A stretch of DNA of 34,657 nt. Source: a virus. Lineage: Duplodnaviria > Caudoviricetes. The position numbers were made by a program, and so were the translations under genes. Positions 7,323-31,354 of the stretch are shown piece by piece. How positions within the stretch are numbered: position 1 is the stretch's first letter; the number at the start of each line of letters is the position of its first letter. The stretch covers positions 1-34,657 of the IMG/VR virus record IMGVR_UViG_3300042366_001181. One strand, given 5' to 3'. Below the pieces are notes generated by a model that saw only the letters and a list, made by a program, of their open reading frames with translations, made no database searches and was not told the DNA's origin.

Positions 7323-7892
7323 ATGGCGGAACCACGGATCATGTCGGACATCGAGTTCGGGCGGCAGGTCATGGGCTATCAGCCCGGACAGTCGATCGAG
7401 GGCGCGGAACTGGATAAGTTCGAGCGGGAGTATGAGGCTTACCGCAAGAAGGCTCTCAGCGATTGGCAGCTCCGGACCGATGACCAGGGACGGATGGTGC
7501 GGGCGAACCCGACGACGGGTCTCGTCATGACCATGACCAATGCCCAAGGACAACCGGTCATGGCGGGGACTTCGGGTAGCCAGGACCCTTATGCTGCTTA
7601 TATGAATCCCACCGGCGTAAGCGGGGCCGATCCCGCGGCGGCAGATATGACAAACTCGGCGGCGTTCCAAGGGGTGCAGCCGACGGCGGCGCCCGCGGGG
7701 AATGCGGTCGTGCCGGTGAATGTGAATCCGGCGATGCAGCGGACCGCTGGGCCAGCGGTCCCTACCGGGGTAACGGCGGCGGCGCCGGTGTTCCGGACGG
7801 AGGATGATGTGATCTCGGCGGCGCGGGCGGGGCAGCTGTCGAAGGAGCAGGCGCAGCAAATTTTGGTGAATCAATTCGGACTCGATCCGTGA
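7323..7892 (+). CDS. putative internal virion protein
   Basis: AAGGAG RBS; 189 aa; overlaps the next gene (GTGA). Confidence 0.55.
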   Translation: MAEPRIMSDIEFGRQVMGYQPGQSIEGAELDKFEREYEAYRKKALSDWQLRTDDQGRMVRANPTTGLVMTMTNAQGQPVMAGTSGSQDPYAAYMNPTGVSGADPAAADMTNSAAFQGVQPTAAPAGNAVVPVNVNPAMQRTAGPAVPTGVTAAAPVFRTEDDVISAARAGQLSKEQAQQILVNQFGLDP

Positions 7893-9438
7893 GTAGCCGC
7901 TCCGCCAGCGCACTCCTCGATGCGGCTCTGGCCGTGCCGTTTGATCCGGAGGAAGAGGATCGGCGGCAGCTGGCGTTGGCGCGGTCGGCGTCTTGGGACT
8001 CGGGGCCGGTGTCGCCTTCGGTGGTGGATATCGCGCCGGAACCGGCGTTTGTGCCGGACCCGCTGGTGCAGGCCGCAGATCAGCAAATGCAGCGGACGGC
8101 TGAGCCAGCCGTCCCTACCGGGGAATATATGGAGCCGCCGCTACCGCAGGCGGATGAGGATTTGCCGCCGGTGAGTCAGCCTGGAGCAGGGGGCATGGGG
8201 CAGGGAGTAACCAGACAGGGAGGCGGGCGGCGGTCGGCTTCGGCGCTCCTCGCGGAGGTTTTGCCGGAGGCGACGGCAGCTGAGCAGCGGACGGCTGGGC
8301 CAGCCGTCCCTACCGGGGGCACGCGGCGGCGGTCGGCGGCGGCGCTTTTGGCGGATGTTCCGGAGGATAGTGGGGTGCTGCGGCGGGCGGCGGATGTGCC
8401 GATCTTTATTGCCCAGGGAATCACGACGGGGCTGAAGGGGCTGACGGATGCTTTCGGCGCGGATAATGCGGCGTCGCAGGCGCTGGCGGCGAATCAAGAT
8501 TTTTACCAGGCGCAGCTGTCACCGGAGGCGCAGGCTTCGCAACAGCGGGTGGCGCAGATCCAGGCGGAGGCGGCGGACCAGGGCGTGATGGCGCAGCTGG
8601 GGGCGGCGGGCCGGGCGTTTGCGGAGTCGCCGACGGCGTTCGTGGCGCAGGGCGTGGGGACGATGGCGCCGACGATCGCGCTGGGCGCGGCGGGCAAGGC
8701 GGTGGGCCTGGGCGCCCGCGGCGTGCAGGCGGTGCAGACGGCGACGGGGGCGACGATGGGCGGCGGGATCGTGAAGGGGGAAATTTATCAGGCGGTGGAG
8801 CAGGCGATGCTGCAAGCGGGACGTTCGCCGGAGGAGGCGGCGGAGGCGGCGTCGACGGCGCAGGCTTACGGCGGGGAGAATCTTGACCAGATCCTGGCGG
8901 GCTACGGGCTGGGGGCTTTGGCGACGGCGATCGGGGCGGAACGCTTGGCGGGTCGGGCGATCGCGGGCGCGGCGGCGCCGACGGGTGGCGTGCTGCGGGT
9001 GGCGGGACGGACGGCTTTGCAGGAGGCGTTGCCGGAGGCGGCGCAGGGTGGACAAGAGCAGCTGGCGCGGAACTTGGCGCAGCAACGTGAGGATTTCAAT
9101 GTGCCGACGATGCGCGGCGTGGTGGGCGCCGGGGCGCTGGAGGGCCTAGCCGGTCTGGCGATCGGCGGTCCGGCGGGCGTGGCGGCGGGGGTGGGCGCCA
9201 GGATGGCGCCGCAGGGAGCAAGGAGCACGGAGCAGGGAGCCGGAGCACCGGCGGCCGCTGCCGCGGCGCCGGCACCGGTGCGGCGGGTGGTGGTGGAGGC
9301 GGATGATGTCTTTGGGGAGGCGACGACGGCGGCGGTGAGTGAGCCTGGAGCGGGGAGCATGGAGCCGGGAGCAGGGGATGAAAGGTTTGCTCCGCCGCCC
9401 GCAGCTGAGCAGCGGCCCGCTGAGCCAGCGGGCCCTAC
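7741..9438 (-). repeat. four GTAG-type REP-like hairpins inside CDSs (7741-7765, 8094-8118, 8289-8313, 9414-9438)
   Basis: 9-bp stem/3-nt loop followed by CTAC (GTAG on the - strand). Confidence 0.85.
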
Positions 9439-12400
9439 CGGGGAAGATTTGTTTGGCGAGGTGGAGCAGCGGGGTGAGACGATCGTGACGCCGCCGCCGG
9501 CGCCGGTGGACCCGACGGTGAATCCTTACCGTGATGCAGAGGGCGGAATACAAATCCCGTTTCGCGCCAGTTCAAATTTTGATCCGACGTTGCAGCAGTT
9601 TGAGGACCGGATGCGGGCGACGGCCAATGATCCGGTGGTTGCTGATGAGACTTACAATGCCATTCCCGGCAGCAAAGGGGGCAAGGTCATCGGCACGGAC
9701 ATTGCCAGGGAATTGTTGCCGGAGTATGGCGCGGGGCGCCAGGGCAAGATCGACTTTGTCAATGCCACGGGCCGCGTGGCGCAAGCCTATGCCAAGGATC
9801 GCCTGTGGCGGGAGATCAACAACCGCGGGGATCGGAAAATTTTATTGTTCACGGCGGGCGGAGTGGCGGCCGGCAAAAGCACGGCGGTGACGGATCAAAT
9901 GGTGGAGCGTGCTGACGTAGTATTTGATGGCACGTTGCGAGAAACAGAATGGGCCAAGCAAACTATCCAACAGGCACTGAACAATGGATGGGAAGTCGAA
10001 GTGAATTATGTGCAGCGTCCGTTGGATTTGGTGGCGCGTGGAGCAATCAGACGGGCGCAACAGGAAGGCCGATGGGGCCCATATCAGTCAGTCCCGGAAA
10101 CTCACGCCGGCGCGCAAAGATCAATTGTCGATTTGTCCAAGACGTTTGCTGCAAATCCAGATGTTCAATTTAGTTACTACCTGAACGACGGCGCATCGGT
10201 CACGGACGTGCCAAAGATTTTGTCTGTGAAGGACATTGACAAGGGAGGAAAATATTCTTATGATGCAAGTGATGAGCGAGTATCCAACAGGCAGGACAGC
10301 CCTCGGGGACCTAATCGCAGCCAAGCTGGACCGCAATCCCAACAACCCACTCAATCGGGCCAAGAGGGCGGCGGAGGCGGCGCGTTTGCGTGGCGAGTCC
10401 GCGGCTACAGTCCAGACGAGCACCTCGAAATCTTTCGAGAAGCCGCTCGGTCAGGCGATGTCGAGCCCGGCATCTTACGCCGCTTAGCGGCGGGTAATCC
10501 GGCGCTCGAGCAGGCCGTCGACGAGGCGGCGCCGGCTAAGGCTAAACTCAGCATCCAACGCAAGCTGCGGCCGGACTCGGGGGCGATCGACTTGTCGATC
10601 GTCGAGGACATCGTGGAGTATGGGCAGACGGTCTACCGCGCTGGCATGGATCTGGCGACTTGGTCGGCGCAGATGGTGCGGGAGTTCGGGCAGGGCGTGG
10701 CACAATTTCTTCGCCAGGCGTTTGACCGGATCGTGGCGGCTTATCGGGACTCGCGGTTTGCGGATACGACCGGGGCCGTCGGGGATGTGCGGCCGCGGCA
10801 GACGAAGCCGCGGCAGCTGGAGGAGAAGGCGATGCGGAATGAGGCGCTGGCGGCGGAGACGCGGGCGCGACTTGGGTCGGAGTATCTTCCTATTTCGCTG
10901 AATGCGCAGGCGGAGGCGGCGAAGGAGTGGATCAATACGAATGGGCTGGATGCGGCGAAGTTGCGGATTGCGCAGTTGTCGGGGGAGGATTCGGTGCCGA
11001 CGCCGTTGGATTTTGCGATTGGGATCGAGGCTGCGGGGCGTTTGTCGGCGGTGGGGGATCACCAGGGGGCGGCGGATATTGTCTCGACGATGAGTCACCG
11101 GGCGACGGGGATGGGGCAGACGATTTCGACGTTGGCGATGATGGCGCGGTTGTCGCCGGAGGGGATTGTTTTCTACGGGGAGAATATCATTCGGCGGTAT
11201 ATCAATGCGTTGCCGCCGGAGGCGCAGGATCGTATCCGGGCGCTCCAGGCGGAGGTGGCGCGGTTGAAGGCGGAGCTGGCGCAGGCGAAGTTCGACCAGG
11301 GGAGTGAGGTGATCCGGTCGGGCAAGCTGGGGGATGAGAAGATCCAGGATCGGATCAAGCGGCGGCAGCGGGCGAAGGTGACGGCGGACTTGGGGCCGGC
11401 GGCCTCGGGGCCGGAGGTGACGGCGGAGACGCGGTCGCGGGTGATCTCGATGAATCGGGCGGTGCGGGATGTGCTCTTGGGCGATGCGACGAAGGCGGAG
11501 GCGACGAAGGCGATCGAGGCGATCCTCCTCGAGCAGGGGAATCTCTCGGCGTCGGAGGCGGCGGCGATGGCGAAGTCGATCGCGGATGCTTTCTTCAAGC
11601 TGATGCGGGAGACGCGGACGCGGTTGACGAATGAGGCGCGGACGAAGGCGCTGCCGACGAAGGCGCGGGGGTTTGAGAAGTTGCTGGAGTTGCTGCGGTC
11701 GGGCAAGGATGTGTCGGACGCGGAGTTCACGGGGAATGTGGCGCAGCTGCTGGGCTTGCCTGGCATGACGCGGGAGATGGCGAAGGAGCTACAGGAGCTG
11801 GGCAAGCGGTATGAGCGATCGACCGATCCGGATGTGCGGTTGGCGCTGGCGGCACAGATGTTTGAGATGACGCATGAGATGGTGCCGGCGGATATTTGGG
11901 CAAAGGTGCGGGCGTGGGCGTATCTGGCAATGCTGTTTGCGCCGAGGACGTGGATTAAGAATATCTTGGGCAATGAGATTTTGTGGGTGGCGCACATCGG
12001 GCGGGATGCGTTTATCTCGGGGATCATGGACCCGGCGATGTCGTTGCTGACGGGCAAGCGGACTTTGTCGGGAGTGCATTTTGCCAAGCGGGCGCGGGCG
12101 TTGCTGACGCCGATCGAGGACGTGAAGCGGGGCTACATGTGGAGCAAGCAGGAAAACCCGTCGTTCAATTTCCGGCAGAATCTGGCGGCGGGGGTGAATC
12201 ATTTGCGGTTGCTGGCGAAGCTGACGTCGCAGAACAGGTTTGAGATCACAGATGTGCGGAATGTAAACGGGCGGATTTTCTCGTCTAAGTTCGGGCGGTT
12301 CTGGGAGAACGGTCTGTCGATCGCCCTGGGCGCGGGCGACCGGGCCTTCTGGATGGCGCAGTTCCGAACGAGCCTGGCGCAGATGCAGGCGGCGGCGGAG

Positions 12401-13852
12401 AAGAATGGCGAGTGGTCGGGGCAGCCGACGCCGGAGATGATTGAGGCGGCGTATGCGGAGGCGGCGTATGCCATTTTCCAAAACCCGAACGTGGTGAGCA
12501 AGGGGCTGAATTACATCCGCAAGGGGTTGAACTTGATTTCAACTTGGGGGCGGTCGTCGGAGTTTGGGCTGGGAACGGGGTTGCTGGCGTTCACGCAGGT
12601 GCCAGGCTCGATCACGGTGCGGGGGCTGGTGGATTGGTCGCCGCTCGGGTTTATCCAGGCGATGTATACTGGCATGCGGGGGATTCTCTACGCCTCGAGC
12701 ACGGGGCGGATGGGCGCGAAGTTCGACCAAGCGGCGTTCAACAAGGAATTCACGCAGGCGTTGTTGGGATCTGGCGGGCTTTATCTGCTCGGCGCTTGGC
12801 TTTACTCGCTGGGCATCATTTCGGCGAGCCGAGAGGATGATGATGACCTCGAGGCTTTCCGTCGGGCATCGGGCACCGGGGCGTATCGGATCAATGTGAC
12901 GGCGTTGCGCCGGGCGTTGCTGAGCGGGAACTGGTTTCAGCGACAAGAGGGCGAGATGGGGGATTTGATTTATCCGTATGATTGGGCGCAGCCGCTGGCC
13001 ATCACGCTGGCTGCGGGCGCGGAGCTGGCGGCGCAGAAAGAGCGGGCGGGCCGCGAGGAGTTGAAGAAAGGCGCGGCAAAGCAGCAGACCATGGCGGCAA
13101 CGATATTCAAGCTGTCGGGCACTAAGTCGCTGGAGGAGTTGCCGCTGTTGAGCGGGTTGTCGTCGTTCATGAAGGCGTGGGGTTACGGTGGCGCGGTGGA
13201 TGCCGTGGCCAATACGGTGGTGGGGATGCCGGCGATGTTTGTGCCGCAGGTGGTGCGGCAGTGGATGCAGCTAACGGACAACATGCAGCGTGAGACGTCC
13301 GCCGGCGATCCGGTGAAGAGGGAGTTTATGAAGGTCTTGGCGTCGATGCCGGTCTATTCGACGAAGTTTCCGCTAAAGTTTGACACGATGGGCCAAGCCA
13401 TCGAGCGGTATCAATACGGCGGGAACAATGTGTTCAACGTGATGCTGAATCCGGCCGTGGCGCAGCAGATCAAGATCAACCCCGTGATGCAAGAGATCAG
13501 TCGGCTGGTCGATGCCACCGGGCAGACGGGCATGGCGCCAAAGAAGGTGGATCGCAAGGCAACGATCAATGGCCAAGAAGTCGAACTGACCAACAACCAG
13601 ATGTCAGTTTACCAATACTATCTGGGCAATTTCACGATGGCGCATTTCACCTGGCGGATGGCGGCGCCGGTCTATGCCAGGCTGCCGGATGAGCTAAAGG
13701 TCAAAATGCTGGCCGACGACATCCAAGACATCGACGCCGCGGTGAAGTCCGCCGTGCTCGGCCACGACATGCGCCGGCTGACGCGCAAGCAACTTTTCTT
13801 GCGGAATGCGCTGGTCAATAGCCCGCTCGGGCGGAGTGTGCCGCCGAAGTAA
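7889..13852 (+). CDS. large polyvalent/ejection protein with zeta-toxin-like P-loop kinase domain and LPD38-like C-terminus
   Basis: 1987 aa; GGVAAGKST Walker A (9857-9883), VFDGTL, RRAQQEGR; C-terminal YDWAQP...FVPQVVRQ...FDTMG motifs. Confidence 0.75.
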   Translation: MSSRSASALLDAALAVPFDPEEEDRRQLALARSASWDSGPVSPSVVDIAPEPAFVPDPLVQAADQQMQRTAEPAVPTGEYMEPPLPQADEDLPPVSQPGAGGMGQGVTRQGGGRRSASALLAEVLPEATAAEQRTAGPAVPTGGTRRRSAAALLADVPEDSGVLRRAADVPIFIAQGITTGLKGLTDAFGADNAASQALAANQDFYQAQLSPEAQASQQRVAQIQAEAADQGVMAQLGAAGRAFAESPTAFVAQGVGTMAPTIALGAAGKAVGLGARGVQAVQTATGATMGGGIVKGEIYQAVEQAMLQAGRSPEEAAEAASTAQAYGGENLDQILAGYGLGALATAIGAERLAGRAIAGAAAPTGGVLRVAGRTALQEALPEAAQGGQEQLARNLAQQREDFNVPTMRGVVGAGALEGLAGLAIGGPAGVAAGVGARMAPQGARSTEQGAGAPAAAAAAPAPVRRVVVEADDVFGEATTAAVSEPGAGSMEPGAGDERFAPPPAAEQRPAEPAGPTGEDLFGEVEQRGETIVTPPPAPVDPTVNPYRDAEGGIQIPFRASSNFDPTLQQFEDRMRATANDPVVADETYNAIPGSKGGKVIGTDIARELLPEYGAGRQGKIDFVNATGRVAQAYAKDRLWREINNRGDRKILLFTAGGVAAGKSTAVTDQMVERADVVFDGTLRETEWAKQTIQQALNNGWEVEVNYVQRPLDLVARGAIRRAQQEGRWGPYQSVPETHAGAQRSIVDLSKTFAANPDVQFSYYLNDGASVTDVPKILSVKDIDKGGKYSYDASDERVSNRQDSPRGPNRSQAGPQSQQPTQSGQEGGGGGAFAWRVRGYSPDEHLEIFREAARSGDVEPGILRRLAAGNPALEQAVDEAAPAKAKLSIQRKLRPDSGAIDLSIVEDIVEYGQTVYRAGMDLATWSAQMVREFGQGVAQFLRQAFDRIVAAYRDSRFADTTGAVGDVRPRQTKPRQLEEKAMRNEALAAETRARLGSEYLPISLNAQAEAAKEWINTNGLDAAKLRIAQLSGEDSVPTPLDFAIGIEAAGRLSAVGDHQGAADIVSTMSHRATGMGQTISTLAMMARLSPEGIVFYGENIIRRYINALPPEAQDRIRALQAEVARLKAELAQAKFDQGSEVIRSGKLGDEKIQDRIKRRQRAKVTADLGPAASGPEVTAETRSRVISMNRAVRDVLLGDATKAEATKAIEAILLEQGNLSASEAAAMAKSIADAFFKLMRETRTRLTNEARTKALPTKARGFEKLLELLRSGKDVSDAEFTGNVAQLLGLPGMTREMAKELQELGKRYERSTDPDVRLALAAQMFEMTHEMVPADIWAKVRAWAYLAMLFAPRTWIKNILGNEILWVAHIGRDAFISGIMDPAMSLLTGKRTLSGVHFAKRARALLTPIEDVKRGYMWSKQENPSFNFRQNLAAGVNHLRLLAKLTSQNRFEITDVRNVNGRIFSSKFGRFWENGLSIALGAGDRAFWMAQFRTSLAQMQAAAEKNGEWSGQPTPEMIEAAYAEAAYAIFQNPNVVSKGLNYIRKGLNLISTWGRSSEFGLGTGLLAFTQVPGSITVRGLVDWSPLGFIQAMYTGMRGILYASSTGRMGAKFDQAAFNKEFTQALLGSGGLYLLGAWLYSLGIISASREDDDDLEAFRRASGTGAYRINVTALRRALLSGNWFQRQEGEMGDLIYPYDWAQPLAITLAAGAELAAQKERAGREELKKGAAKQQTMAATIFKLSGTKSLEELPLLSGLSSFMKAWGYGGAVDAVANTVVGMPAMFVPQVVRQWMQLTDNMQRETSAGDPVKREFMKVLASMPVYSTKFPLKFDTMGQAIERYQYGGNNVFNVMLNPAVAQQIKINPVMQEISRLVDATGQTGMAPKKVDRKATINGQEVELTNNQMSVYQYYLGNFTMAHFTWRMAAPVYARLPDELKVKMLADDIQDIDAAVKSAVLGHDMRRLTRKQLFLRNALVNSPLGRSVPPK

Positions 13853-14909
13853 GCGAGCCTTTTTTGTTGTTGGCAATTTCCTCTTCGAGCCAGCGCATGA
13901 AGGCTTTATCCTGCGCAGGCGTCATGCGGTTAAGCGCATCATTTGTCATGCGGCGGACGCCATCGCTAAAGCGGACAAGAATGTGTCCATTAGGGTCACG
14001 GCCGACAACGCCCACAAATTCCGCTCGAAGGCGGTGCACCCATTGGGGATCGGTAGGCGTTTTAGCAAATTTCAGTCCAAGTTGTTTAAGCTGATTCTTC
14101 AGTTCATTTAGTGATTGTTTGCCGAATTTAGGAATCATAAGAAGCTGAGATTCCGTTTTGTCTACCAGATCGCCAATGGTTCGGATGCCCGCGTCGTTAA
14201 GCAAGTTCGCGCAACGCACACTTAGCTCAATTTCATTAACTGACGTGTCACGTTGTTGCTGGTTTGACAGTGCGTCCCAGCGATCCAGTTCTGCACCACG
14301 CCGACGACGTCCTTTGTTGCGTTGCCAAAGAGGAACAGTGACGTTTTTAACCTTTAACTTGTAGCCGCACGCGTGAGTCAAAGACATGCGCAGTGATCTC
14401 AGTAGGTCTTGGATTGCTGCCAATTGGTGAGCGCCGATGTTGTAAATTTGCCGGAGTTCGTAAGGATACTTGTCGGCTACTGCGCCAAGTGTATTCAAAC
14501 CAGCGTTCCGCAAAGCCTTTTCCGTTTTTGGCAACAACCCAAAGGCATCCAAATCCAAAGCACGCCTTCGCTCAATGGTTGTAGCGGCGGCGATGTAATC
14601 TAAGTAGCGGTGTTTTTCATCATCTGTCATGGCGCGGACTTTGTTAGCCGGGCAGAGGTAATCGGTAAGTGTTTTCTTTGGCGGTGGCCATAGAGGCCCT
14701 TGAGACTTCGCCGCTGGCTGCGGGGCTACTGCGTCCGTGCTTTGAGCATCAATCCATTTCATCAAAGCGTCATGGGAAACAACCACGCGCCGGCCGAGAC
14801 GTGTCATCGGCAATCCTTGTTTCTCCACCATGTTGTAAATGTGGCGAACGGAACAACGCAACAACTTGGCAACTTCGTCGAGGGTGAGGAATGTTGGAAC
14901 ATTATTCAT
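13815..14909 (-). CDS. Xis-like HTH fused to two RNA polymerase alpha-CTD-like domains and a terminase-N-terminus-like segment
   Basis: ATG at 14909; FLTLDEVAKLLRCSVRHIY..LGRR (HTH_17); SVNEIELSVRCANLLNDAGIRTIGDLV..FGKQSLNE (alpha-CTD); lower GC. Confidence 0.85.
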   Translation of the reverse strand: MNNVPTFLTLDEVAKLLRCSVRHIYNMVEKQGLPMTRLGRRVVVSHDALMKWIDAQSTDAVAPQPAAKSQGPLWPPPKKTLTDYLCPANKVRAMTDDEKHRYLDYIAAATTIERRRALDLDAFGLLPKTEKALRNAGLNTLGAVADKYPYELRQIYNIGAHQLAAIQDLLRSLRMSLTHACGYKLKVKNVTVPLWQRNKGRRRRGAELDRWDALSNQQQRDTSVNEIELSVRCANLLNDAGIRTIGDLVDKTESQLLMIPKFGKQSLNELKNQLKQLGLKFAKTPTDPQWVHRLRAEFVGVVGRDPNGHILVRFSDGVRRMTNDALNRMTPAQDKAFMRWLEEEIANNKKGSLTSAAHSARAGY

Positions 14910-15001
14910 GCCGGAATCATTGCATGTATGTGCAGACGCGTGCAACTACGAATTTGCAGCACGGGCGAACGAATGTTGCGCTCGGGCGGAGTGTGCCGCC
15001 G
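13824..15001 (+). repeat. 23-bp direct repeat CGCTCGGGCGGAGTGTGCCGCCG at 13824-13846 and 14979-15001 flanking the moron
   Basis: exact match read from the sequence; both copies are followed by one codon and a stop (AAG TAA / CGG TGA). Confidence 0.9.
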
Positions 15002-15054
15002 CGGTGATTTTATGACACGTTTGGGGGGTCGAAAGTCTGATCCCTAATTTGATA

Positions 15055-15289
15055 ATGGACCGACTAGTGGCCCGACCCCTCCCGTAACAGGTTCAACTAC
15101 CCCTTCCGTAGTCAGATGCTCTATCCAATTGAGCTATGGCTGCAAAGTCTCTGTTGGAGGGTGGTGTTTGGGCCAGTGCCCTCTGATGGACCCTCTGATT
15201 TTAGGGAAAGAATTTGCTTGCAGGCTGCGTCTGCGTGCATCACTTTGTCGCTATGAAAGTGGACCAACCCGTGGCCCGAGTGGCCCAAC
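15055..15289 (+). repeat. putative integrase arm-type binding sites, RTGGMCCRAS x5
   Basis: ATGGACCGAC 15055, GTGGCCCGAC 15067, GTGGACCAAC 15259, GTGGCCCGAG 15271, GTGGCCCAAC 15280, on both sides of the att core. Confidence 0.7.
15105..15143 (-). other. attP core region: 5' half of tRNA-Arg(ACG), not a complete tRNA
   Basis: reverse complement GCAGCCA TA GCTC AATTGGATA GAGC A TCTGA CTACGGA gives acceptor 5' strand, D arm, anticodon 5' stem and loop; similarity stops at the end of the loop; adjacent to integrase. Confidence 0.85.
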
Positions 15290-16428
15290 CCGTTAATGCA
15301 CGCAAGCAGACTCGCCAGCAGCGCCGACATCATGAGGTGTCGGTCTTTAAGGAGCCGGGCTCGGAGTTTTATTACTATCGGGTGAAGATTCACGGGAAGC
15401 GGTTTAAGCGGTCGACGAATACGACTACTTTGGCGGCGGCGATTGCGCAAGCTAAAGTGATCCGCCGTCAACTCCTCGAGGATGGGCAGGCGCGGGATTC
15501 GATGAAGCGGCCGGGCTTTGCCTCGGTGGGCGATGTGCTGAAGGTGTGGATGGAGCGGTCGACGGCGGAGACTCGGGCCAATAATCGGTCCACTTTGAAG
15601 AAGTGGGTGCGGTCGTTTGCGGCGGGCGATGAGGATGCGGTGTCTATGACACGGCTGACGGCGGAGGTGTTTGAGCGGTATTTGCAGAAGTGGCCGGGGT
15701 CGCCGCAGGGTAGGGAATCTACTTGGCGGCAGATCCGGGCGGTGTTCGCTAAGGAGCCGATGCGTTGGTATAAGCAGGCGGGGTTGGTGTTGCCGGATAT
15801 GGAGGAGTTCCGGGCGGTGAAGGGGAAGGTGAAGGCGCGGGAGAAGCTGTTTAAGGGGTTTGTGCCGTTGCGGGCGGAGGTGTTGGCGGAGATGGATGCG
15901 GCGGCGGAGAGGTTGCGGACGTCGGCGGATCTGGAGGAGCGGAAGGTGTGGGCGGTGTATGCTCTGATGCGGTGGTGTGGGTTGCGGAATTCGGAGACGA
16001 CGGCGCTGCGCTGGGAGTGGTTGGTGCGGGGGCAGAAGGGCTATCTGTGGAAGTTTGAGGTGCATAGGGATGAGGAGGGGAATTGGCAGGAGCCGAAGGG
16101 GACGCCGGGGCAGGTGCCGGTGCGGACGCGGTTGATCGGGCAGTTGCGGTGGGCGCTGAAGTCGCGGCGGTCGGGGTTTGTCATTCCGCGGGCGAATAAG
16201 ACGGAGGCGGATGAGCTGGCGTCGCGGCGGATTAATGATTTCTTGCGGCCGTGGTTTCCGAATGCGGGGCCGAAGGACAAGAAGGCTTATGATTTGCGCA
16301 AGCAGTTCGGGTCGGAGATTGCTTTGCGGGATGGGATCGAGGTGGCGTGCCGGATTTTGCGTCACGCGGATATCAAGACGACATGGAATCATTATCACGC
16401 TTTGTTGAACGAGCCGGCGCCGCTTTAG
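15253..16428 (+). CDS. int: tyrosine recombinase (phage integrase)
   Basis: arm-binding N-terminus (YYYRVKIHGKRFKRST); GLRNSE, YDLRK, ILRHADIKTTWNHY catalytic motifs; ATG 15253 preferred. Confidence 0.9.
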   Translation: MKVDQPVARVAQPVNARKQTRQQRRHHEVSVFKEPGSEFYYYRVKIHGKRFKRSTNTTTLAAAIAQAKVIRRQLLEDGQARDSMKRPGFASVGDVLKVWMERSTAETRANNRSTLKKWVRSFAAGDEDAVSMTRLTAEVFERYLQKWPGSPQGRESTWRQIRAVFAKEPMRWYKQAGLVLPDMEEFRAVKGKVKAREKLFKGFVPLRAEVLAEMDAAAERLRTSADLEERKVWAVYALMRWCGLRNSETTALRWEWLVRGQKGYLWKFEVHRDEEGNWQEPKGTPGQVPVRTRLIGQLRWALKSRRSGFVIPRANKTEADELASRRINDFLRPWFPNAGPKDKKAYDLRKQFGSEIALRDGIEVACRILRHADIKTTWNHYHALLNEPAPL

Positions 16429-16784: not shown

Positions 16785-17747
16785 ATGAAAGCGCACTATC
16801 TTGCGTGGTTTTTGGTTGTTGGGTGGTGGGTATCGGTGTGGGGACAGGGGCAGGATGTGATGGTGGGGTTGGAGCGGGCGGATTCGTTGCATGGGCCGTG
16901 GGTGGCGGTGCCGATCGAGGCGGGGATGTTGCACGGGGGTCGGGTGAATGCGGGGCGGGTGACGAATGACCAGGGGTTTTATCGGTTGCGCGGGGAGTTG
17001 GTGGCGGCGCCGACACCGTCGCCGAGTCCGTCGCCTTCACCGACGCCGGCGCCGGTGTTGCCGGTGTTTGATGGGGTGACGGTGCCGGGTGGGGTACAGT
17101 CGGGGTGGTTCGGGTCGGGGTGGATGAATGGGTTTGTCATAACGCGGCATGAGGTGTCGGGGGCGAAGTGGGCGCCGGTGCGGGCGTGGGCGGTGGCGAA
17201 TGGTTATGACATTGGCGCGGGGTCGTTTGCGGGGGATGATTTTCCGGTGGGCGGGATTACTTGGCATGATGCGGTGAAGTGGTGCAATGCGCTCTCGGAG
17301 TGGTCGGGGCTGTCGCCGGCGTATCAGGTGGATGGGGCGGTGTATCGGTCGGGGGTGCGGGATGATGTGGCGATGGTGGGCGGGACGGGGTGGCGTTTGC
17401 CTTCGGAGCGGGAGTGGGAGTGGGCGGCGCGGGGTGCGACGCTGAGCGGGGGGTTTGTTTATGCGGGGTCGAATGACGCGGGCACGGTGGCTTGGTATGA
17501 TCAGAATGCGGGGTCGGCGCAGCGGGTGGGGACGAAGGTGGCGAATGAGTTGGGGCTGCACGATATGAGCGGGAATGTGGCGGAGTGGTGTTTTGACCTG
17601 GCTACGGTGGGGATGACGCCGCGGAGGTTCCGGGGCGGGGCTTATGGGACGCTGGGGGAACTTTCGGTGCGGTCGACGCGTCGTGGGGAGCAGCCGGCCG
17701 CGGCGGTGAATGCGTGGATGGGGCTTCGCCTGGCGAAGTGGAACTAA
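16785..17747 (+). CDS. exported formylglycine-generating-enzyme family (SUMF1/FGE, C-type lectin fold) protein
   Basis: signal peptide, PS/PT linker, ITWHDAVKWCN, RLPSEREWEWAARG, NELGLHDMSGNVAEWC, GLRLA. Confidence 0.9.
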   Translation: MKAHYLAWFLVVGWWVSVWGQGQDVMVGLERADSLHGPWVAVPIEAGMLHGGRVNAGRVTNDQGFYRLRGELVAAPTPSPSPSPSPTPAPVLPVFDGVTVPGGVQSGWFGSGWMNGFVITRHEVSGAKWAPVRAWAVANGYDIGAGSFAGDDFPVGGITWHDAVKWCNALSEWSGLSPAYQVDGAVYRSGVRDDVAMVGGTGWRLPSEREWEWAARGATLSGGFVYAGSNDAGTVAWYDQNAGSAQRVGTKVANELGLHDMSGNVAEWCFDLATVGMTPRRFRGGAYGTLGELSVRSTRRGEQPAAAVNAWMGLRLAKWN

Positions 17748-19005: not shown

Positions 19006-19239
19006 ATGTTAAACCAATCCAAGGAAACAAACAAACCTGGGGAGCTGCCTCAGTGTTACTCTGTGTCGCAGCTGTGCGATCGCACCGGATTAAGCCGTGC
19101 GACTCTCAGCCGGGCGCTTAGCCGCGGCGAGCTGGAGCACTATCGGATCGGCTCGAGGGCTGTCATCCCGGCGCCGGCGGTCATCCTTTGGCTGGAACGC
19201 AACAAGGTTGCCCGCCGTCCTGCTTTGCGCGTGGCATGA
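19006..19239 (+). CDS. excisionase-like HTH (HTH_17) protein
   Basis: YSVSQLCDRTGLSRATLSRALSRGELEHYRIGSRAVIP..WLE. Confidence 0.8.
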   Translation: MLNQSKETNKPGELPQCYSVSQLCDRTGLSRATLSRALSRGELEHYRIGSRAVIPAPAVILWLERNKVARRPALRVA

Positions 19240-20162
19240 GTAAGAAGGCTAACAGCCTAATCGTTGCCGAGGCCGAGGCTGAGGCTTCGGCCCCCGCCCT
19301 TTCTTTTTTTGAGGAAGTCGAAAGAGGTGAGATAGAGCTGGCTGCTGCTGGTGAGTTCACCGGCGAGCGGTTGTTCCGTGACCGGCCAGAGATTTACCAG
19401 GCGATCGTCCGCATGACGGCCGAGGGGCTCAGCATCTCGGCTGCCGCTCGGGCGCTTCGCGTCTCTCGCAATACAGTGTGCGCAGTCAGGGAGAGGGAAG
19501 CTGTTCCTATAGAGCAGGAGAAAAAGGAAGTGTTGAACCTGTTGCGGAAGGGGATGCGACTCGGAGCTGAGCGCACCCTCGAGCTTTTGCCTGACACCAA
19601 GTCAGCCAAGGATGCTGCACTGGTCACGGCCATCATGGCGGACAAGCACCAGCTGCTGTCAGGTGAGGCGACCAGCCGGATCGAGCGGGTCGAGGCAAGG
19701 CCAGACCAAGTGCGTCAATACCTGGACAGCCTGCCAGTCATCGAGGCCGAGATCGTCGAGTGTGAGATTTCAACCGGTATTGCCGGCGAGATCCCTGGAC
19801 AAAAGGGGACCGACGCACCGGCCGCCGCGCCTCTGTTGCTGGCGCCGTCCTCTGATATAGGATCAGATGATCTTTGCCCCTGTCACACTGTAGAGGCGCA
19901 GACGTGGGCCACACCAAGGGCCACGCATGATGACACCACCCCCCCACCCAGGGGGGGAGGGGGTCCGGATACTGACTACCCCCAGCCCCAAGGTATTGAT
20001 CCCGAAAAACAGAATTTTGGCCAAAGGGCCAATGTCCGCGGTTTCGGTCTTGGGGAACCGGCCGCGGACAAAACTCTATGCAAACGCACACCACCGAAAA
20101 AGAAGGGCTCCTCGAAGAAGGCGCCGACTACAGCAAAAAAGAAGGGGGGCTCCGAGTGTTGA
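19236..20162 (+). CDS. putative terminase small subunit (HTH) with low-complexity C-terminal extension
   Basis: GLSISAAARALRVSRNTV HTH; IMADKHQLLSGEATSRIE motif; ATG 19236 overlaps the previous stop. Confidence 0.55.
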   Translation: MSKKANSLIVAEAEAEASAPALSFFEEVERGEIELAAAGEFTGERLFRDRPEIYQAIVRMTAEGLSISAAARALRVSRNTVCAVREREAVPIEQEKKEVLNLLRKGMRLGAERTLELLPDTKSAKDAALVTAIMADKHQLLSGEATSRIERVEARPDQVRQYLDSLPVIEAEIVECEISTGIAGEIPGQKGTDAPAAAPLLLAPSSDIGSDDLCPCHTVEAQTWATPRATHDDTTPPPRGGGGPDTDYPQPQGIDPEKQNFGQRANVRGFGLGEPAADKTLCKRTPPKKKGSSKKAPTTAKKKGGSEC

Positions 20163-22608: not shown

Positions 22609-22829
22609 AACACACCAGCTCACCCCTCCGGCACTACAAGCAGAAGCTCGGTCTCACCACCACCACCTTCCGCAAATGGCGTCGCACCACCATGCGCGGC
22701 CGCCGCACCACCCCCGGCACCGCCGCCACCAACTTCCACGGCCGCGCCCGCGTCAAACGCCTCCGCCTCCGCAAACTCCAGCGCATCGCCCGCCAGGTAG
22801 GGCGGGGCCTCCGGACCCGCCGCCTCTGA
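22605..22829 (+). CDS. highly basic hypothetical protein
   Basis: 74 aa, Arg/Lys-rich; ATGA overlap. Confidence 0.5.
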   Translation: MKHTSSPLRHYKQKLGLTTTTFRKWRRTTMRGRRTTPGTAATNFHGRARVKRLRLRKLQRIARQVGRGLRTRRL

Positions 22830-23205: not shown

Positions 23206-23287
23206 CCCTCTCAAATTTCAAATCTCCAATTTCAAATCTCCAATCCCTGCCAACCGCCAACTGCCAACTTTCCCACCTTCCCACCAA

Positions 23288-25956: not shown

Positions 25957-26268
25957 ATGAGCGCCGGCAAAGGCAGCAAACCAAGACCCGTGAACCCGCG
26001 CACCTACGCCGCGAACTACGCCGCGATCCGCTGGTCCGATCCTCCGACTGTTTCCACCCCGGTAGGGTCCGCTGGCCCAGCGGACCGCCCATCATATCCC
26101 GACTGGATATGCCACGAATGCGGCCGCAAGCACGGCCGCGGCTGGCCCGAAGGCCACGTCGCCACCTTCCACGCCGGCACCTGCGACATCTGCGGCCAAT
26201 CCGCCAGCGTCACCGAACCCCGCGACTACGGCCACCTCCGAGCCTGGCCACTGTCAACTGCCAACTGA
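25957..26268 (+). CDS. hypothetical Zn-finger protein with internal REP hairpin
   Basis: GKGSKPRP N-module; CHECG...CDICG..TEPRDYG C-module. Confidence 0.65.
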   Translation: MSAGKGSKPRPVNPRTYAANYAAIRWSDPPTVSTPVGSAGPADRPSYPDWICHECGRKHGRGWPEGHVATFHAGTCDICGQSASVTEPRDYGHLRAWPLSTAN

Positions 26269-26288
26269 AAACTGCCAACTCTGCCCTT

Positions 26289-27295: not shown

Positions 27296-28993
27296 ATGAT
27301 TTTCACCCAGCACCAAATTCATAAGGCGCCGTCCATCCTCGGCCGCGACCCCGCCGGCAACGTCCTCGTCCGCTTCGACGACGGCGTCCGCCGCATGACC
27401 CCGGATCAGCTCGTCGAATTCCACAAACTTTTCGAAGAGCGCATCCGTCTCGAGATCGAAGATCCTTACCGCTACGGCGCCGTCCTGCCCGTTTGGTCCA
27501 CGGCCGACCGCCAATTCGCCGAACTCCGCGAGCAATTCCCCAAAGGCGTCACCGAGCTCCTCATCCTCGGCGGCAACCGCGCCAGCAAATCCCGCTACCT
27601 CGCCCGCCGCGCCGTGCAGATCCTGGTCAATACCCCCGGCGCCAAAGTCTGGTGCCTGCAATCCACCGAAGCCTCCAGCATCCAGAACCAGCAACCCTAC
27701 ATCTGGGAATACCTGCCCGCCGAATGGAAACCCGCCGCCTCCGGCAAACTCCGCAAAGGCGTCGTCACGAACATCACCTACTCGCAGAAAGGCGGATTCA
27801 CCGAAAACTCCTTCGTCCTCCCGAACGGCAGCCAGTGCTGGTTCAAATTTTACTCCATGGACGTCAAAGCCGTAGAAGGTGCCGAATTAACCTACTGCTG
27901 GGCCGACGAACTCGTCAGTCCCGAGTGGATCGAAGCCCTCCGCTTCCGCCTCATCACCCGCAACGGCGAGCTCGCCGTCGGCTTCACGCCCGTCCTCGGC
28001 TACACCGACACCGTCGCCGAATACCTCGCCGGCGCCATCACCCTCGAAGATACCGAAGCCGAGCTCGTCCTCGACATCAAAGGCCGCCCCATCCGCGTCC
28101 CCCGCGTCCAGCAATGCGCCAAGCCCACCGCCCGCGTCGTCTACTTCCACACTGCCGACAACCCCTTCGGCAACTACGACGCGATGAAGACCGAACTCAT
28201 CAAGTCCCCCAAAGACCGCATCCTCATGCGAGCCTACGGCGTCCCCACGAAAAAGGCCGCCAACATGTTCGTCAACTTCAATACCAACATCCACGTCATC
28301 CCCCCCGACCGCGTGCCGAAACGCGGCGTCAACTACCAAGTCGTCGATCCCTGCTCCGGCCGCAACTGGTTCATGATCTGGGCGCGATTCGACGCCGCCG
28401 GCCGCTGCTTCGTTTATGACGAATGGCCCAGCCAAGTCCGCGAAGTCCCCGGCGTCGGCCTCCCCGGCCCCTGGGCCGTCCCCGGCGGCAACAACCCCGA
28501 CGGCATTGCCGGCGACGCCCAGCGCAGCTTCGGCTTCGGGTTGAGCCACTACAAACTCGAGATCGAAAACATCGAAACCCGCCACGCCCGCGACGCCGAA
28601 GACTTCGTCATCTTCGAGCGCATCATGGACAGCCGGTATGGCAACGCCGCCACCGTCGCCAGGGAAGGCGCGACAACCTTGATCGAAGAATGCAGCGAGA
28701 TCGGCCTCCACTTCACCGCCGCCCCCGGCGACGGCATCGCCGAAGGCGTCACCATGATTATCAACTGGCTCAGCTACGACGACAGCCAGCCCATCGGCGC
28801 CCTCAACCAGCCGACCCTGTATGTCACGAGCAACTGCAAAAACCTCATCTTCGCCTTGAGCCAATACACGGGGACGGGCCCCAAAACCTCCGGAACAAAA
28901 GATGCAATCGACGTCCTGAGATACCTCGTCCTCAGCGGCGCCAGCTACCACGACAACACCGACCTCAGCTTCCAACCCCTAGGCAGCTACTGA
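27296..28993 (+). CDS. terL: terminase large subunit
   Basis: GGNRASKS (variant Walker A), YCWADE Walker B, GFTP motif, VVDP nuclease motif, KDAIDVLRY. Confidence 0.9.
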   Translation: MIFTQHQIHKAPSILGRDPAGNVLVRFDDGVRRMTPDQLVEFHKLFEERIRLEIEDPYRYGAVLPVWSTADRQFAELREQFPKGVTELLILGGNRASKSRYLARRAVQILVNTPGAKVWCLQSTEASSIQNQQPYIWEYLPAEWKPAASGKLRKGVVTNITYSQKGGFTENSFVLPNGSQCWFKFYSMDVKAVEGAELTYCWADELVSPEWIEALRFRLITRNGELAVGFTPVLGYTDTVAEYLAGAITLEDTEAELVLDIKGRPIRVPRVQQCAKPTARVVYFHTADNPFGNYDAMKTELIKSPKDRILMRAYGVPTKKAANMFVNFNTNIHVIPPDRVPKRGVNYQVVDPCSGRNWFMIWARFDAAGRCFVYDEWPSQVREVPGVGLPGPWAVPGGNNPDGIAGDAQRSFGFGLSHYKLEIENIETRHARDAEDFVIFERIMDSRYGNAATVAREGATTLIEECSEIGLHFTAAPGDGIAEGVTMIINWLSYDDSQPIGALNQPTLYVTSNCKNLIFALSQYTGTGPKTSGTKDAIDVLRYLVLSGASYHDNTDLSFQPLGSY

Positions 28994-29085
28994 AAAGCTG
29001 AAATCTGAAATGCTGAAATCTCAAATTTCCAATCTCCAATCCCCAATCCCCAACTGCCAACTGAATACTGCCAACTGAAAACTGT
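28990..29085 (+). repeat. compound heptamer tandem-repeat tract (CTGAAAT/CTCCAAT/CTGCCAA), largest of about 12 such tracts
   Basis: similar tracts at about 706-738, 1496-1514, 22835-22861, 23208-23285, 25323-25352, 25633-25696, 26250-26281, 27259-27288, 29517-29547, 29940-29970, 31809-31839. Confidence 0.85.
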
Positions 29086-29088
29086 TCC

Positions 29089-29268
29089 ATGACCAAACAC
29101 CTATTGAAACGCGCAGACATCCTCGAATGGCTGCAAATCACCCCCGCCACCTACCGCAAGTGGTTAGAGAGCGGACTATTAAAACCCGTCAAACTCCGCG
29201 GCATAGCCAAGAAATGGTTCCGCCGCACCGACATCATCAAAACCCTACAACTAGAAGAAACCCTATGA
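29089..29268 (+). CDS. Xis/MerR-like HTH protein (59 aa, not in ORF track)
   Basis: MTKHLLKRADILEWLQITPATYRKWLESGLLKPVKLRGIAKKWFRRTDII. Confidence 0.7.
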   Translation: MTKHLLKRADILEWLQITPATYRKWLESGLLKPVKLRGIAKKWFRRTDIIKTLQLEETL

Positions 29269-29531
29269 GCGACACGCCACAAACAAACGCATTTATTGAA
29301 TCTCTCCACGACGATTGGGATGTGGAGTTTGCCAGCTTAACGGCACATGCCAAAAAACTTCAGCGCGAGCGCGACGCCCTCAAAGAGCTGTCGATCCAAC
29401 TAGCCAAGGAACTCGTCTCCAAATGCTCCGACCCTGTGCACAAGCATCAAGTCTCTCAACTGCAAGAGGTTGAAGACTACTTCAAGTATCGCCCGCAGAC
29501 CATGTGCACGTCCGGTCCTGCCAACTGCTAA
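29265..29531 (+). CDS. hypothetical protein
   Basis: MSDTPQTNA...HAKKLQRERD pattern; ATGA overlap. Confidence 0.6.
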   Translation: MSDTPQTNAFIESLHDDWDVEFASLTAHAKKLQRERDALKELSIQLAKELVSKCSDPVHKHQVSQLQEVEDYFKYRPQTMCTSGPANC

Positions 29532-29547
29532 CTGCCAACTGAAAACT

Positions 29548-31051: not shown

Positions 31052-31323
31052 GCAAAAAGTCCAAGATCACCGCCGAGCAAATCGAATCCTCGCTCGCCCA
31101 ATTCATCACCGAGCTCAAGAAAAGCCCCGTGAAGCTCGATCATGTCCCCGCCGGATGGTTCACCGTCGCCCAGCTCGCCCAAGAAACCGGCAAATCCATC
31201 TGCATCACCAGCGAACGCGTCCGCAAAATGGTCAAAGACGGCGCCGCCGAACGCAAGGACTACATCATCCAACTCGAACAACGCGCCCGCGCCGTCCCCC
31301 ACTACCGCCTCACCCCCCGGTAG
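31048..31323 (+). CDS. hypothetical wHTH-like protein
   Basis: PAGWFTVAQLAQETGKS...VPHYR; its stop codon lies in the REP GTAG. Confidence 0.6.
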   Translation: MSKKSKITAEQIESSLAQFITELKKSPVKLDHVPAGWFTVAQLAQETGKSICITSERVRKMVKDGAAERKDYIIQLEQRARAVPHYRLTPR

Positions 31324-31354
31324 GGACGGCTGGCCCAGCCGTCCGCCCGCCGCC

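Follow-up and report, generated by a model that had tools for sequence, protein, structure and literature searches.

Within a 34,657-nucleotide stretch of viral DNA (Duplodnaviria; Caudoviricetes; IMG/VR virus record IMGVR_UViG_3300042366_001181, positions 1 to 34,657, hereafter the window), an accessory gene at 13815..14909 joins domains from DNA-binding families to a copy of the N-terminal domain of the phage's own large terminase subunit (TerL). This is a real and probably selected domain capture located in a polymorphic cassette, and neither the architecture nor a mechanism for it is described in the literature covered (mainly open-access texts). An accessory gene has here taken in a core viral domain in frame, and selection has probably retained it; the alleles before and after the event, as well as the empty insertion sites, are still found in nature. 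The features involved are the following, with helix-turn-helix abbreviated as HTH and the C-terminal domain of the RNA polymerase alpha subunit as alphaCTD.

13815..14909, minus strand: 364-aa fusion gene (P0001), whose last 8 residues and stop codon are read from the target site, antisense to the end of a 1987-aa gene
14742..14891, minus strand: HTH_17 or excisionase-type winged HTH, fusion residues 7-56
14382..14564, minus strand: degenerate alphaCTD-like helix-hairpin-helix (HhH) domain, fusion residues ~116-176
14064..14264, minus strand: second alphaCTD, fusion residues 216-282
13869..14018, minus strand: captured TerL N-terminal domain (the module), fusion residues ~298-347; three strands plus a helix are predicted, and 8 residues are duplicated
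13938-14009, minus strand: conserved core of the module, fusion residues 301-324
27296..28993, plus strand: large terminase, 565 aa, with the donor domain (residues 13-55) at 27332-27460

The captured terminase domain

The reading frame, its coordinates and the order of its domains were borne out as originally predicted, and the ATG start is backed by homologues beginning at the same residue. The fusion segment at 14003-13944 (minus strand) is identical to TerL residues 16-35 (27341-27400) at 16 of 20 positions, a match confirmed by BLASTP between the two proteins (18/26, E 6e-9), and at DNA level the two segments form an inverted repeat pair (61 nt, 77%) longer than any other in the window. 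TerL residues 14-39 are the only part that is significantly aligned, and the fusion has neither the ATPase nor the nuclease domain found in a large terminase. The RMT duplication, put at 7 residues in the original prediction, is actually 8 residues long. In AlphaFold models, TerL residues 11-50 reach a predicted local distance difference test score (pLDDT) of 87-94 and the fusion shows the same elements at ~70, both copies being predicted to form the same domain of three strands and a helix.

The 565-aa donor is recognised as TerL in a language-model atlas, where it clusters with Terminase_6N at 0.99, by Foldseek (terminase-like, E 2e-22) and through its relative P0022, which passes the Pfam Terminase_6N cutoff; the protein itself has no direct Pfam or PHROG match, and its sequence matches none of the solved terminases. 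Past residue ~120 its model is of poor quality (mean pLDDT 40.8), and the fold matches of its N-terminal domain, with Z scores of only 3.5-4.2 (PH/FERM, kinesin MBS, COMMD), are uninformative. In a distant clade, TerL residues 13-39 are 22-33% identical, against 76-79% for the ATPase, and the fusion module is closest to the window's own TerL clade (18/26 identical residues versus 4-9/26). Such fast N-terminal divergence and own-clade likeness would be expected of a specificity module. Judged by sequence similarity, the module originates from the TerL clade of the phage itself, in agreement with the original proposal. The first 12 residues of TerL (27296-27330) are 67-83% identical among phages whose TerL is otherwise 94-99% identical.

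When 1.84 billion representatives were searched with a profile of the module built from 20 sequences, 23 hits came back, made up of 11 N-termini or fragments of TerL, one fusion and 11 short repeat matches. Matches to the whole module are confined to this TerL lineage and the fusion (12 of the 23 hits), so that the segment is not a widespread domain unrelated to terminases. The 11 non-terminase hits were rejected as homologues, as they span 14-31 positions, are repeated and lie in Rib, Ig-like, FG-GAP, Tudor and unclassified proteins. P0033, a protein of 357 aa with no Pfam family, carries three meander-like repeats without the helix (E 1.5e-4). Protein searches, shorter and longer, with fusion residues 284-350, which are word-based and weak, found nothing.

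Across the 20 shared codons, 9 synonymous and 6 non-synonymous sites differ, giving a synonymous divergence (dS) of 1.17 and a non-synonymous divergence (dN) of 0.15, for a stretch that was picked for its similarity and in a TerL that is itself constrained. The GC content at third codon positions (GC3) of the captured stretch is 50% in the fusion, which is the level of the cassette, and 96% in TerL, and six differences from TerL are fixed in all five clusters of homologues that carry the module. A recent gene conversion from TerL is ruled out by this gap in GC3 together with the fixed differences, and a pac site copied at DNA level by the 9 synonymous changes among the 20 codons. The surplus of synonymous differences between the copies, from which selection had first been read, is insufficient alone to establish selection on the fusion, because the donor could be an already diverged TerL; the claim stands instead on the comparison of fusion homologues.

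Homologues and probable selection on the module

The fusion protein gave 10 protein hits, seven of which are clusters of full relatives, the other three sharing only an alphaCTD. The module is present in 5/7 clusters, and the remaining two, which are more distant (63-74% over residues 35-282), lack ~69 residues at that point. The original prediction had taken the loss of the segment in homologues as a sign of neutral capture; this applies in part, as two of the seven clusters lack it, and the segment is thus an optional add-on to an older HTH-alphaCTD protein. The simplest order, drawn from an unrooted comparison, has the HTH-alphaCTD cassette first and the TerL domain captured later in one lineage. 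A contig of 1002 nt (X13), 215 nt shorter than the 1217-nt filled contig, would fit a module-less allele.

Among the five carriers, 2 of the 24 columns of the core are variable, compared to 127/340 elsewhere (Fisher p=0.003), with the caveat that columns are non-independent and n is five clusters. The linkers vary in 56/96 columns and the flanks of the core in 8/18 and 13/23, the latter being the helix after the core, while only 5 of the first 58 columns, in the HTH region, are variable. When 341 segments of 24 residues were compared, the 20 as conserved as the core were all found in the HTH region or the module. Within-gene variants, among the best-supported 40 of 249, are synonymous in 12/20 cases, and just one of the 20 lies in the module. 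Taken together, the module core is likely under purifying selection. A plus-strand open reading frame (ORF) at 13806-14111 overlaps the module and is a possible other source of constraint.

No full-length fusion and no match to a 21-nt repeat pattern were found in a viral-contig collection, and a metagenome-contig collection gave, of 77 stretches, one unrelated alphaCTD match and no fusion; these are weak blanks, since near-identical records may be missing from the collections. The fusion is also absent from 50 related records, drawn from 95 TerL, integrase and HTH loci and mostly the longest of them, 16 of which were matched by one domain only.

A one-gene cassette at a variable site

7889..13852, plus strand: 1987-aa gene, whose 3' end is the insertion site and which shares 38 nt, tail to tail, with the fusion gene
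13824..13846, no strand assigned: left copy of a 23-bp direct repeat, inside the 3' end of the 1987-aa gene
14979..15001, no strand assigned: right copy, identical to the left and single in the empty-site relatives L092 and L093

The fusion gene is enclosed by the two exact repeats, 1155 bp apart, as a one-gene cassette. The longest repeat in 200 shuffles was 13 bp, against the 23 bp seen, and the 23-mer, which is coding sequence, occurs at this site only. The cassette has a GC content of 50.5% versus 61%, and a GC3 of 52% versus 78-84% in five core genes; it contains no recombinase gene and no immunity gene, and the fusion gene is oriented against the late operon. Both relatives that share the site (L092 and L093) are empty, with one repeat copy and no cassette, and L088, L089, L094 and L095 have the common attachment (att) core and lack the 23-mer. 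A moron, or lysogenic-conversion accessory gene, is an extra gene between sequences that are adjacent in relatives. By its extra-gene position, evident from L092 and L093, and its distinct composition, the gene fits the moron type, as had been proposed.

In metagenome runs, the empty junction was recovered from X8 as well as X12, X10 yielded another empty allele, and filled contigs came from X5 and X10; empty and filled forms co-occur in lake metagenomes, where the cassette is the minority form in several runs. An assembly chimera is ruled out by the presence of the exact fusion protein on 8 contigs from three sources and by single contigs spanning the cassette in public runs, some of which may be the window's own source. 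Moreover, the last residues and the stop of the fusion gene are supplied by the target: the target alleles of L092 and L093 predict both C-terminal endings seen among fusion homologues, and most homologues likely reside at the same site, because the target alleles match their endings. A single crossover with a circle bearing the 23-mer could explain the gain of the cassette. The 1987-aa gene features a Zeta_toxin-like P-loop stretch at residues 666-755 and no other family match, and its 3' end is replaced in some relatives.

Domains of the fusion protein

Fusion residues 7-56 match the Pfam family HTH_17 (E 1.8e-13, 51 bits against a cutoff of 27) and TIGR01764 (45 against 28.8), and their predicted model matches Xis and BldC winged-HTH folds. 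With regard to a possible role in recombination directionality, a second HTH_17-like ORF lies at 29089-29268 of the window, and the empty-site relatives do not have the fusion gene. The Pfam family RNA_pol_A_CTD covers two stretches of the fusion, the best being 216-276 (E 9e-24). The second alphaCTD, one of two announced by the original prediction, is secure: it matches a solved alphaCTD at E 2.5e-12, with a fold Z score of 12.4 and a root mean square deviation (rmsd) of 1.1, and is 56-61% identical to rpoA of two Chthoniobacterales metagenome-assembled genomes (MAGs). The first (116-176), on the other Pfam stretch, is degenerate and alphaCTD-like, 25% identical to the second (E 1e-6) but modelled closest to other HhH/SAM domains, such as the N-terminus of a RAD51 paralogue (Z 8-9). 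An arginine that we equate by motif with R265 of alphaCTD is invariant in 7/7 fusion homologues. According to the accessible part of the source, R265 contacts DNA (PMC11434276).

The HTH and alphaCTD domains look likely to bind DNA or host activators, which would be the older function of the module-less alleles. In the model of the whole fusion (predicted template modelling score, pTM, 0.33), the domains have no confident mutual packing and the module is absent from the top fold matches. Membership in MADS (MAD1; whole-protein score of 26.7 against a cutoff of 80 bits) and in BREX (PglW; 34.4 against 990 bits) was rejected, as a single domain is shared in each case and there is just one gene in the cassette. 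In the related phage G001, dnaB is immediately followed by a separate 71-aa alphaCTD-like gene, 40% identical to the second alphaCTD of the fusion (L123:1498-1713, minus strand).

Probable attachment site and expression geometry

15105..15143, minus strand: likely attP core, 5' half of tRNA-Arg(ACG), lying ~195 nt upstream of the fusion gene and oriented like it
15214..16428, plus strand: tyrosine integrase

The 39-bp att core is common to relatives, including ones with quite different integrases, and differs from the 5' half of tRNA-Arg(ACG) by 1 mismatch in the 36 bases searched, in 2 of 5 MAGs searched, both of them Verrucomicrobiota. Phage att cores more usually correspond to the 3' half of a tRNA. 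As the core is the 5' half, transcription of the rebuilt tRNA would need a promoter supplied by the phage. A scan that covers the sigma-70 promoter type called neither a promoter nor a terminator on the minus strand in 13600-15300, and no sigma-70 promoter was called upstream of the host tRNA in L127, although TTGACA is visible there. Furthermore, no Rfam match was found in 13500-15400, no whole tRNA in the window, and no RNA dataset among the listed public holders of the sequence. This geometry offers a testable, integration-dependent switch.

Proposed function and alternative explanations

19236..20162, plus strand: HTH_23 protein, candidate small terminase (TerS), with HTH_23 and a conserved helical region

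We tentatively favour, while rating its chance below even, a function in which the module is a TerL mimic expressed by the lysogen, competing for the partner of TerL, likely TerS, and hindering packaging by related phages. The scheme starts from two observations, a single-gene cassette between 23-bp repeats that is present or absent at one site and a module found in some alleles and missing from others; it adds a beta-meander that, from protein conservation, appears to be under purifying selection and is predicted to fold like TerL 13-55. From the geometry described above, a crossover at tRNA-Arg would join the host promoter and the tRNA 5' half to the cassette, so that this promoter would lie a short way upstream of the fusion gene until excision. 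Because excision would separate the gene from that promoter, production of the protein would be largely limited to the prophage, sparing the phage's own lytic cycle, and its module might then bind TerS or another packaging partner and lower packaging by relatives. In the available portion of the source, P22 TerL residues 1-58 are a minimal TerS-binding domain, and the TerS-TerL contact is transient and poorly mapped in most phages (PMC9611059). A competitive mimic is the simplest mode, because this P22 segment binds TerS and because TerI and Rpp act through TerS. Relatives with TerL 98.6-99.5% identical and integrase DNA only 71-73% identical would be possible targets. Should the module bind TerS, it would constitute a self-derived packaging inhibitor that takes another route than TerI, Ppi and Rpp, and would at once be usable to probe how TerS and TerL make contact.

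Several observations weigh against this function. A mimic closest to self raises a problem of self-inhibition, and the cassette has no immunity gene. The TerS candidate has no TerS or terminase family match in family-model scans, sits with replication genes 7 kb upstream of TerL, and shows only 59-61% identity across three phages with TerL 98.6-99.5% identical, which is no covariation with the TerL domain. The 201-nt stretch between the att core and the gene can form a long hairpin (z -1.8), which could stop read-through. The persistence of module-less alleles means that the module is dispensable, and only five carrier clusters are available, known as protein sequences. The N-terminus of TerL is typically helical, and the part of the module that resembles it, the helix, is the most variable and is broken up by the 8-residue duplication. 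Finally, known terminase sensors bind the ATPase and not the N-terminal domain, according to the part of the report at hand (bioRxiv 10.64898/2026.04.30.721860).

A more elaborate form of the packaging-mimic proposal is a kin-specific weapon: integration into tRNA-Arg would plug the cassette into a host promoter, the TerL domain would block or divert packaging by terminase-sharing relatives that escape repressor immunity, and excision would switch it off; as a whole this is unlikely, if worth retaining. Equally unlikely is a module that serves as a fourth nucleic-acid-binding or structural unit of a multi-domain regulator, its meander binding DNA, possibly as in TerL, or packing on the other domains, with no terminase partner. 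The other three domains do come from DNA-binding families, the conserved part is the arginine-bearing meander (4 basic residues) rather than the helix, and the invariant R265-equivalent arginine fits; distant TerLs, however, retain the glycines and the acidic helix residues and not the arginines, and no confident interdomain packing is predicted. Even as a mere DNA-binding add-on, the module would clearly exemplify the shuffling of domains in phages whose host group has been little studied. The union of DNA-binding domains with a TerL contact domain would also suit an adaptor in place of an inhibitor, one that attaches to phage DNA close to attP or a promoter, brings in TerS or a different partner of TerL and biases packaging or late transcription towards cassette-bearing genomes in mixed infection, as Rpp does for phage-inducible chromosomal islands (PICIs). 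Genomes with and without the cassette coexist, RppC is among the folds matched by the HTH model (Z 7.8, rmsd 2.6, 67 aligned), and Rpp redirects packaging by mimicking a TerS domain, as the accessible text states (PMC6739421). We consider an adaptor rather improbable: RppC ranks level with BldC and Xis folds (Z 6.5-7.0) and scores below the tool threshold of 8, the gene points against the late operon, and the cassette has not swept, being missing from the two relatives that share the site and in the minority in several runs.

A neutral passenger, captured once and made uniform by recent recombination among cassette alleles, would agree with the two module-less clusters, the mosaic alleles with differing tails within one cluster, the small number of carriers (five clusters) and the one amino-acid polymorphism segregating in the core. 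It is nonetheless quite improbable, since both flanks vary strongly and a homogenised tract would be only ~72 bp long and coincide with the folded meander; moreover, the frame is open in all carriers, and GC3 fell to the cassette level while 16/20 residues were kept. In the least probable of the readings, the module would divert a host sensor or protease directed at the TerL N-terminus of this lineage, with the alphaCTDs as further decoys for host activators. The fast evolution of the TerL N-terminal domain and the stand-alone alphaCTD gene in a related phage, which places host-mimic domains in the gene pool, are in its favour, yet a decoy should track the current TerL and the six differences are fixed in all five carriers. 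The defence decoy suggested in the original prediction is further weakened as Avs2 and Upx, in the part of the report available, are activated by the conserved ATPase domain, which the fusion lacks (bioRxiv 10.64898/2026.04.30.721860). A study dealing with host decoys contributes nothing specific to this reading (bioRxiv 10.1101/2023.04.06.535777).

Comparison with known systems

The fusion behaves as a moron would and may act in the manner of TerI or Rpp, and on present tests it is not assignable to either of the latter families. As in other morons, it is a single extra gene of lower GC between positions adjacent in relatives, opposite to the late genes and beside attP; in contrast to them, it is bounded by a 23-bp target duplication, takes its stop from the target, has no own sigma-70 promoter called and contains a captured core-gene domain. 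TerI of the Listeria prophage phi10403S is, in the accessible text, a small protein that blocks packaging through TerS, can inhibit its own phage and is countered by two anti-TerI immunity proteins (bioRxiv 10.1101/2025.02.27.640495). Its prophage origin and its TerS-directed block of packaging parallel the mode proposed for the fusion, whereas in that text TerI is not described as TerL-derived and here a TerL-derived domain is fused to HTH and alphaCTD domains.

Rpp of Escherichia coli PICIs and Ppi of Staphylococcus aureus pathogenicity islands (SaPIs) are mobile-element proteins that hijack or block the terminase, as far as the available text covers them (PMC6739421). Rpp has a winged HTH that mimics a domain of a terminase subunit, and the HTH of the fusion is likewise of the winged type; unlike the fusion, Rpp mimics the DNA-binding domain of TerS and not TerL, and PICIs, as described there, have their own integrase and replication genes, in place of one gene inside a phage. 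No sequence match to RppC was found among 44 solved matches to the fusion, and its fold match (Z 7.8) concerns the HTH only. P22 TerL 1-58, an N-terminal segment sufficient for TerS binding in the portion of the source available, is a precedent for the donor domain (PMC9611059), but the window's TerL has no sequence match to any solved terminase and the conserved part is a beta-meander.

The promoter early stem loop (PeSL) cassettes of T4-type phages are similarly repeat-bounded accessory genes, gained and lost via short-repeat recombination with circular intermediates; in the accessible text they differ as multi-copy promoter/terminator elements, the 23-mer being coding and at one site (PMC2839356). 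T4 vs.8 is likewise an accessory protein with homology to part of the terminase of the phage that encodes it, although it copies the ATPase domain and is not described, in the part of the report available, as fused to regulators (bioRxiv 10.64898/2026.04.30.721860). None of the family models covers the HTH-alphaCTD-TerL architecture.

Phage, host and other features of the window

The window includes matches to an SU10-type capsid protein, tail fibre and needle, DnaB, a replication initiator, an amidase and the tyrosine integrase. It is probably a partial genome, as complete relatives measure 38-44 kb, and no portal gene was identified in it. The public holders of the sequence are mostly lake metagenomes. 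Among the seven genome loci with related TerL, six are in Verrucomicrobiota MAGs (five of them Chthoniobacter or Chthoniobacterales) and one is labelled Lysinibacter; the host is likely a Chthoniobacterales bacterium.

Downstream of the integrase, a gene with an FGE-sulfatase fold (16785-17747, E 4e-25) occupies the same position in L092 and L093. A GC-rich repeat of ~32 bp, resembling repetitive extragenic palindromic elements, occurs in six copies on both strands, three inside the 1987-aa frame (7739-7771, 8092-8123, 8287-8319, 9412-9443, 26056-26088 and 31314-31346). Heptamer-based short repeats, mostly intergenic, are found at 715-738, 23246-23269, 26250-26287, 29046-29083 and 29524-29547, and a second, AT-rich repeat family at 22825, 23201 and 29004.

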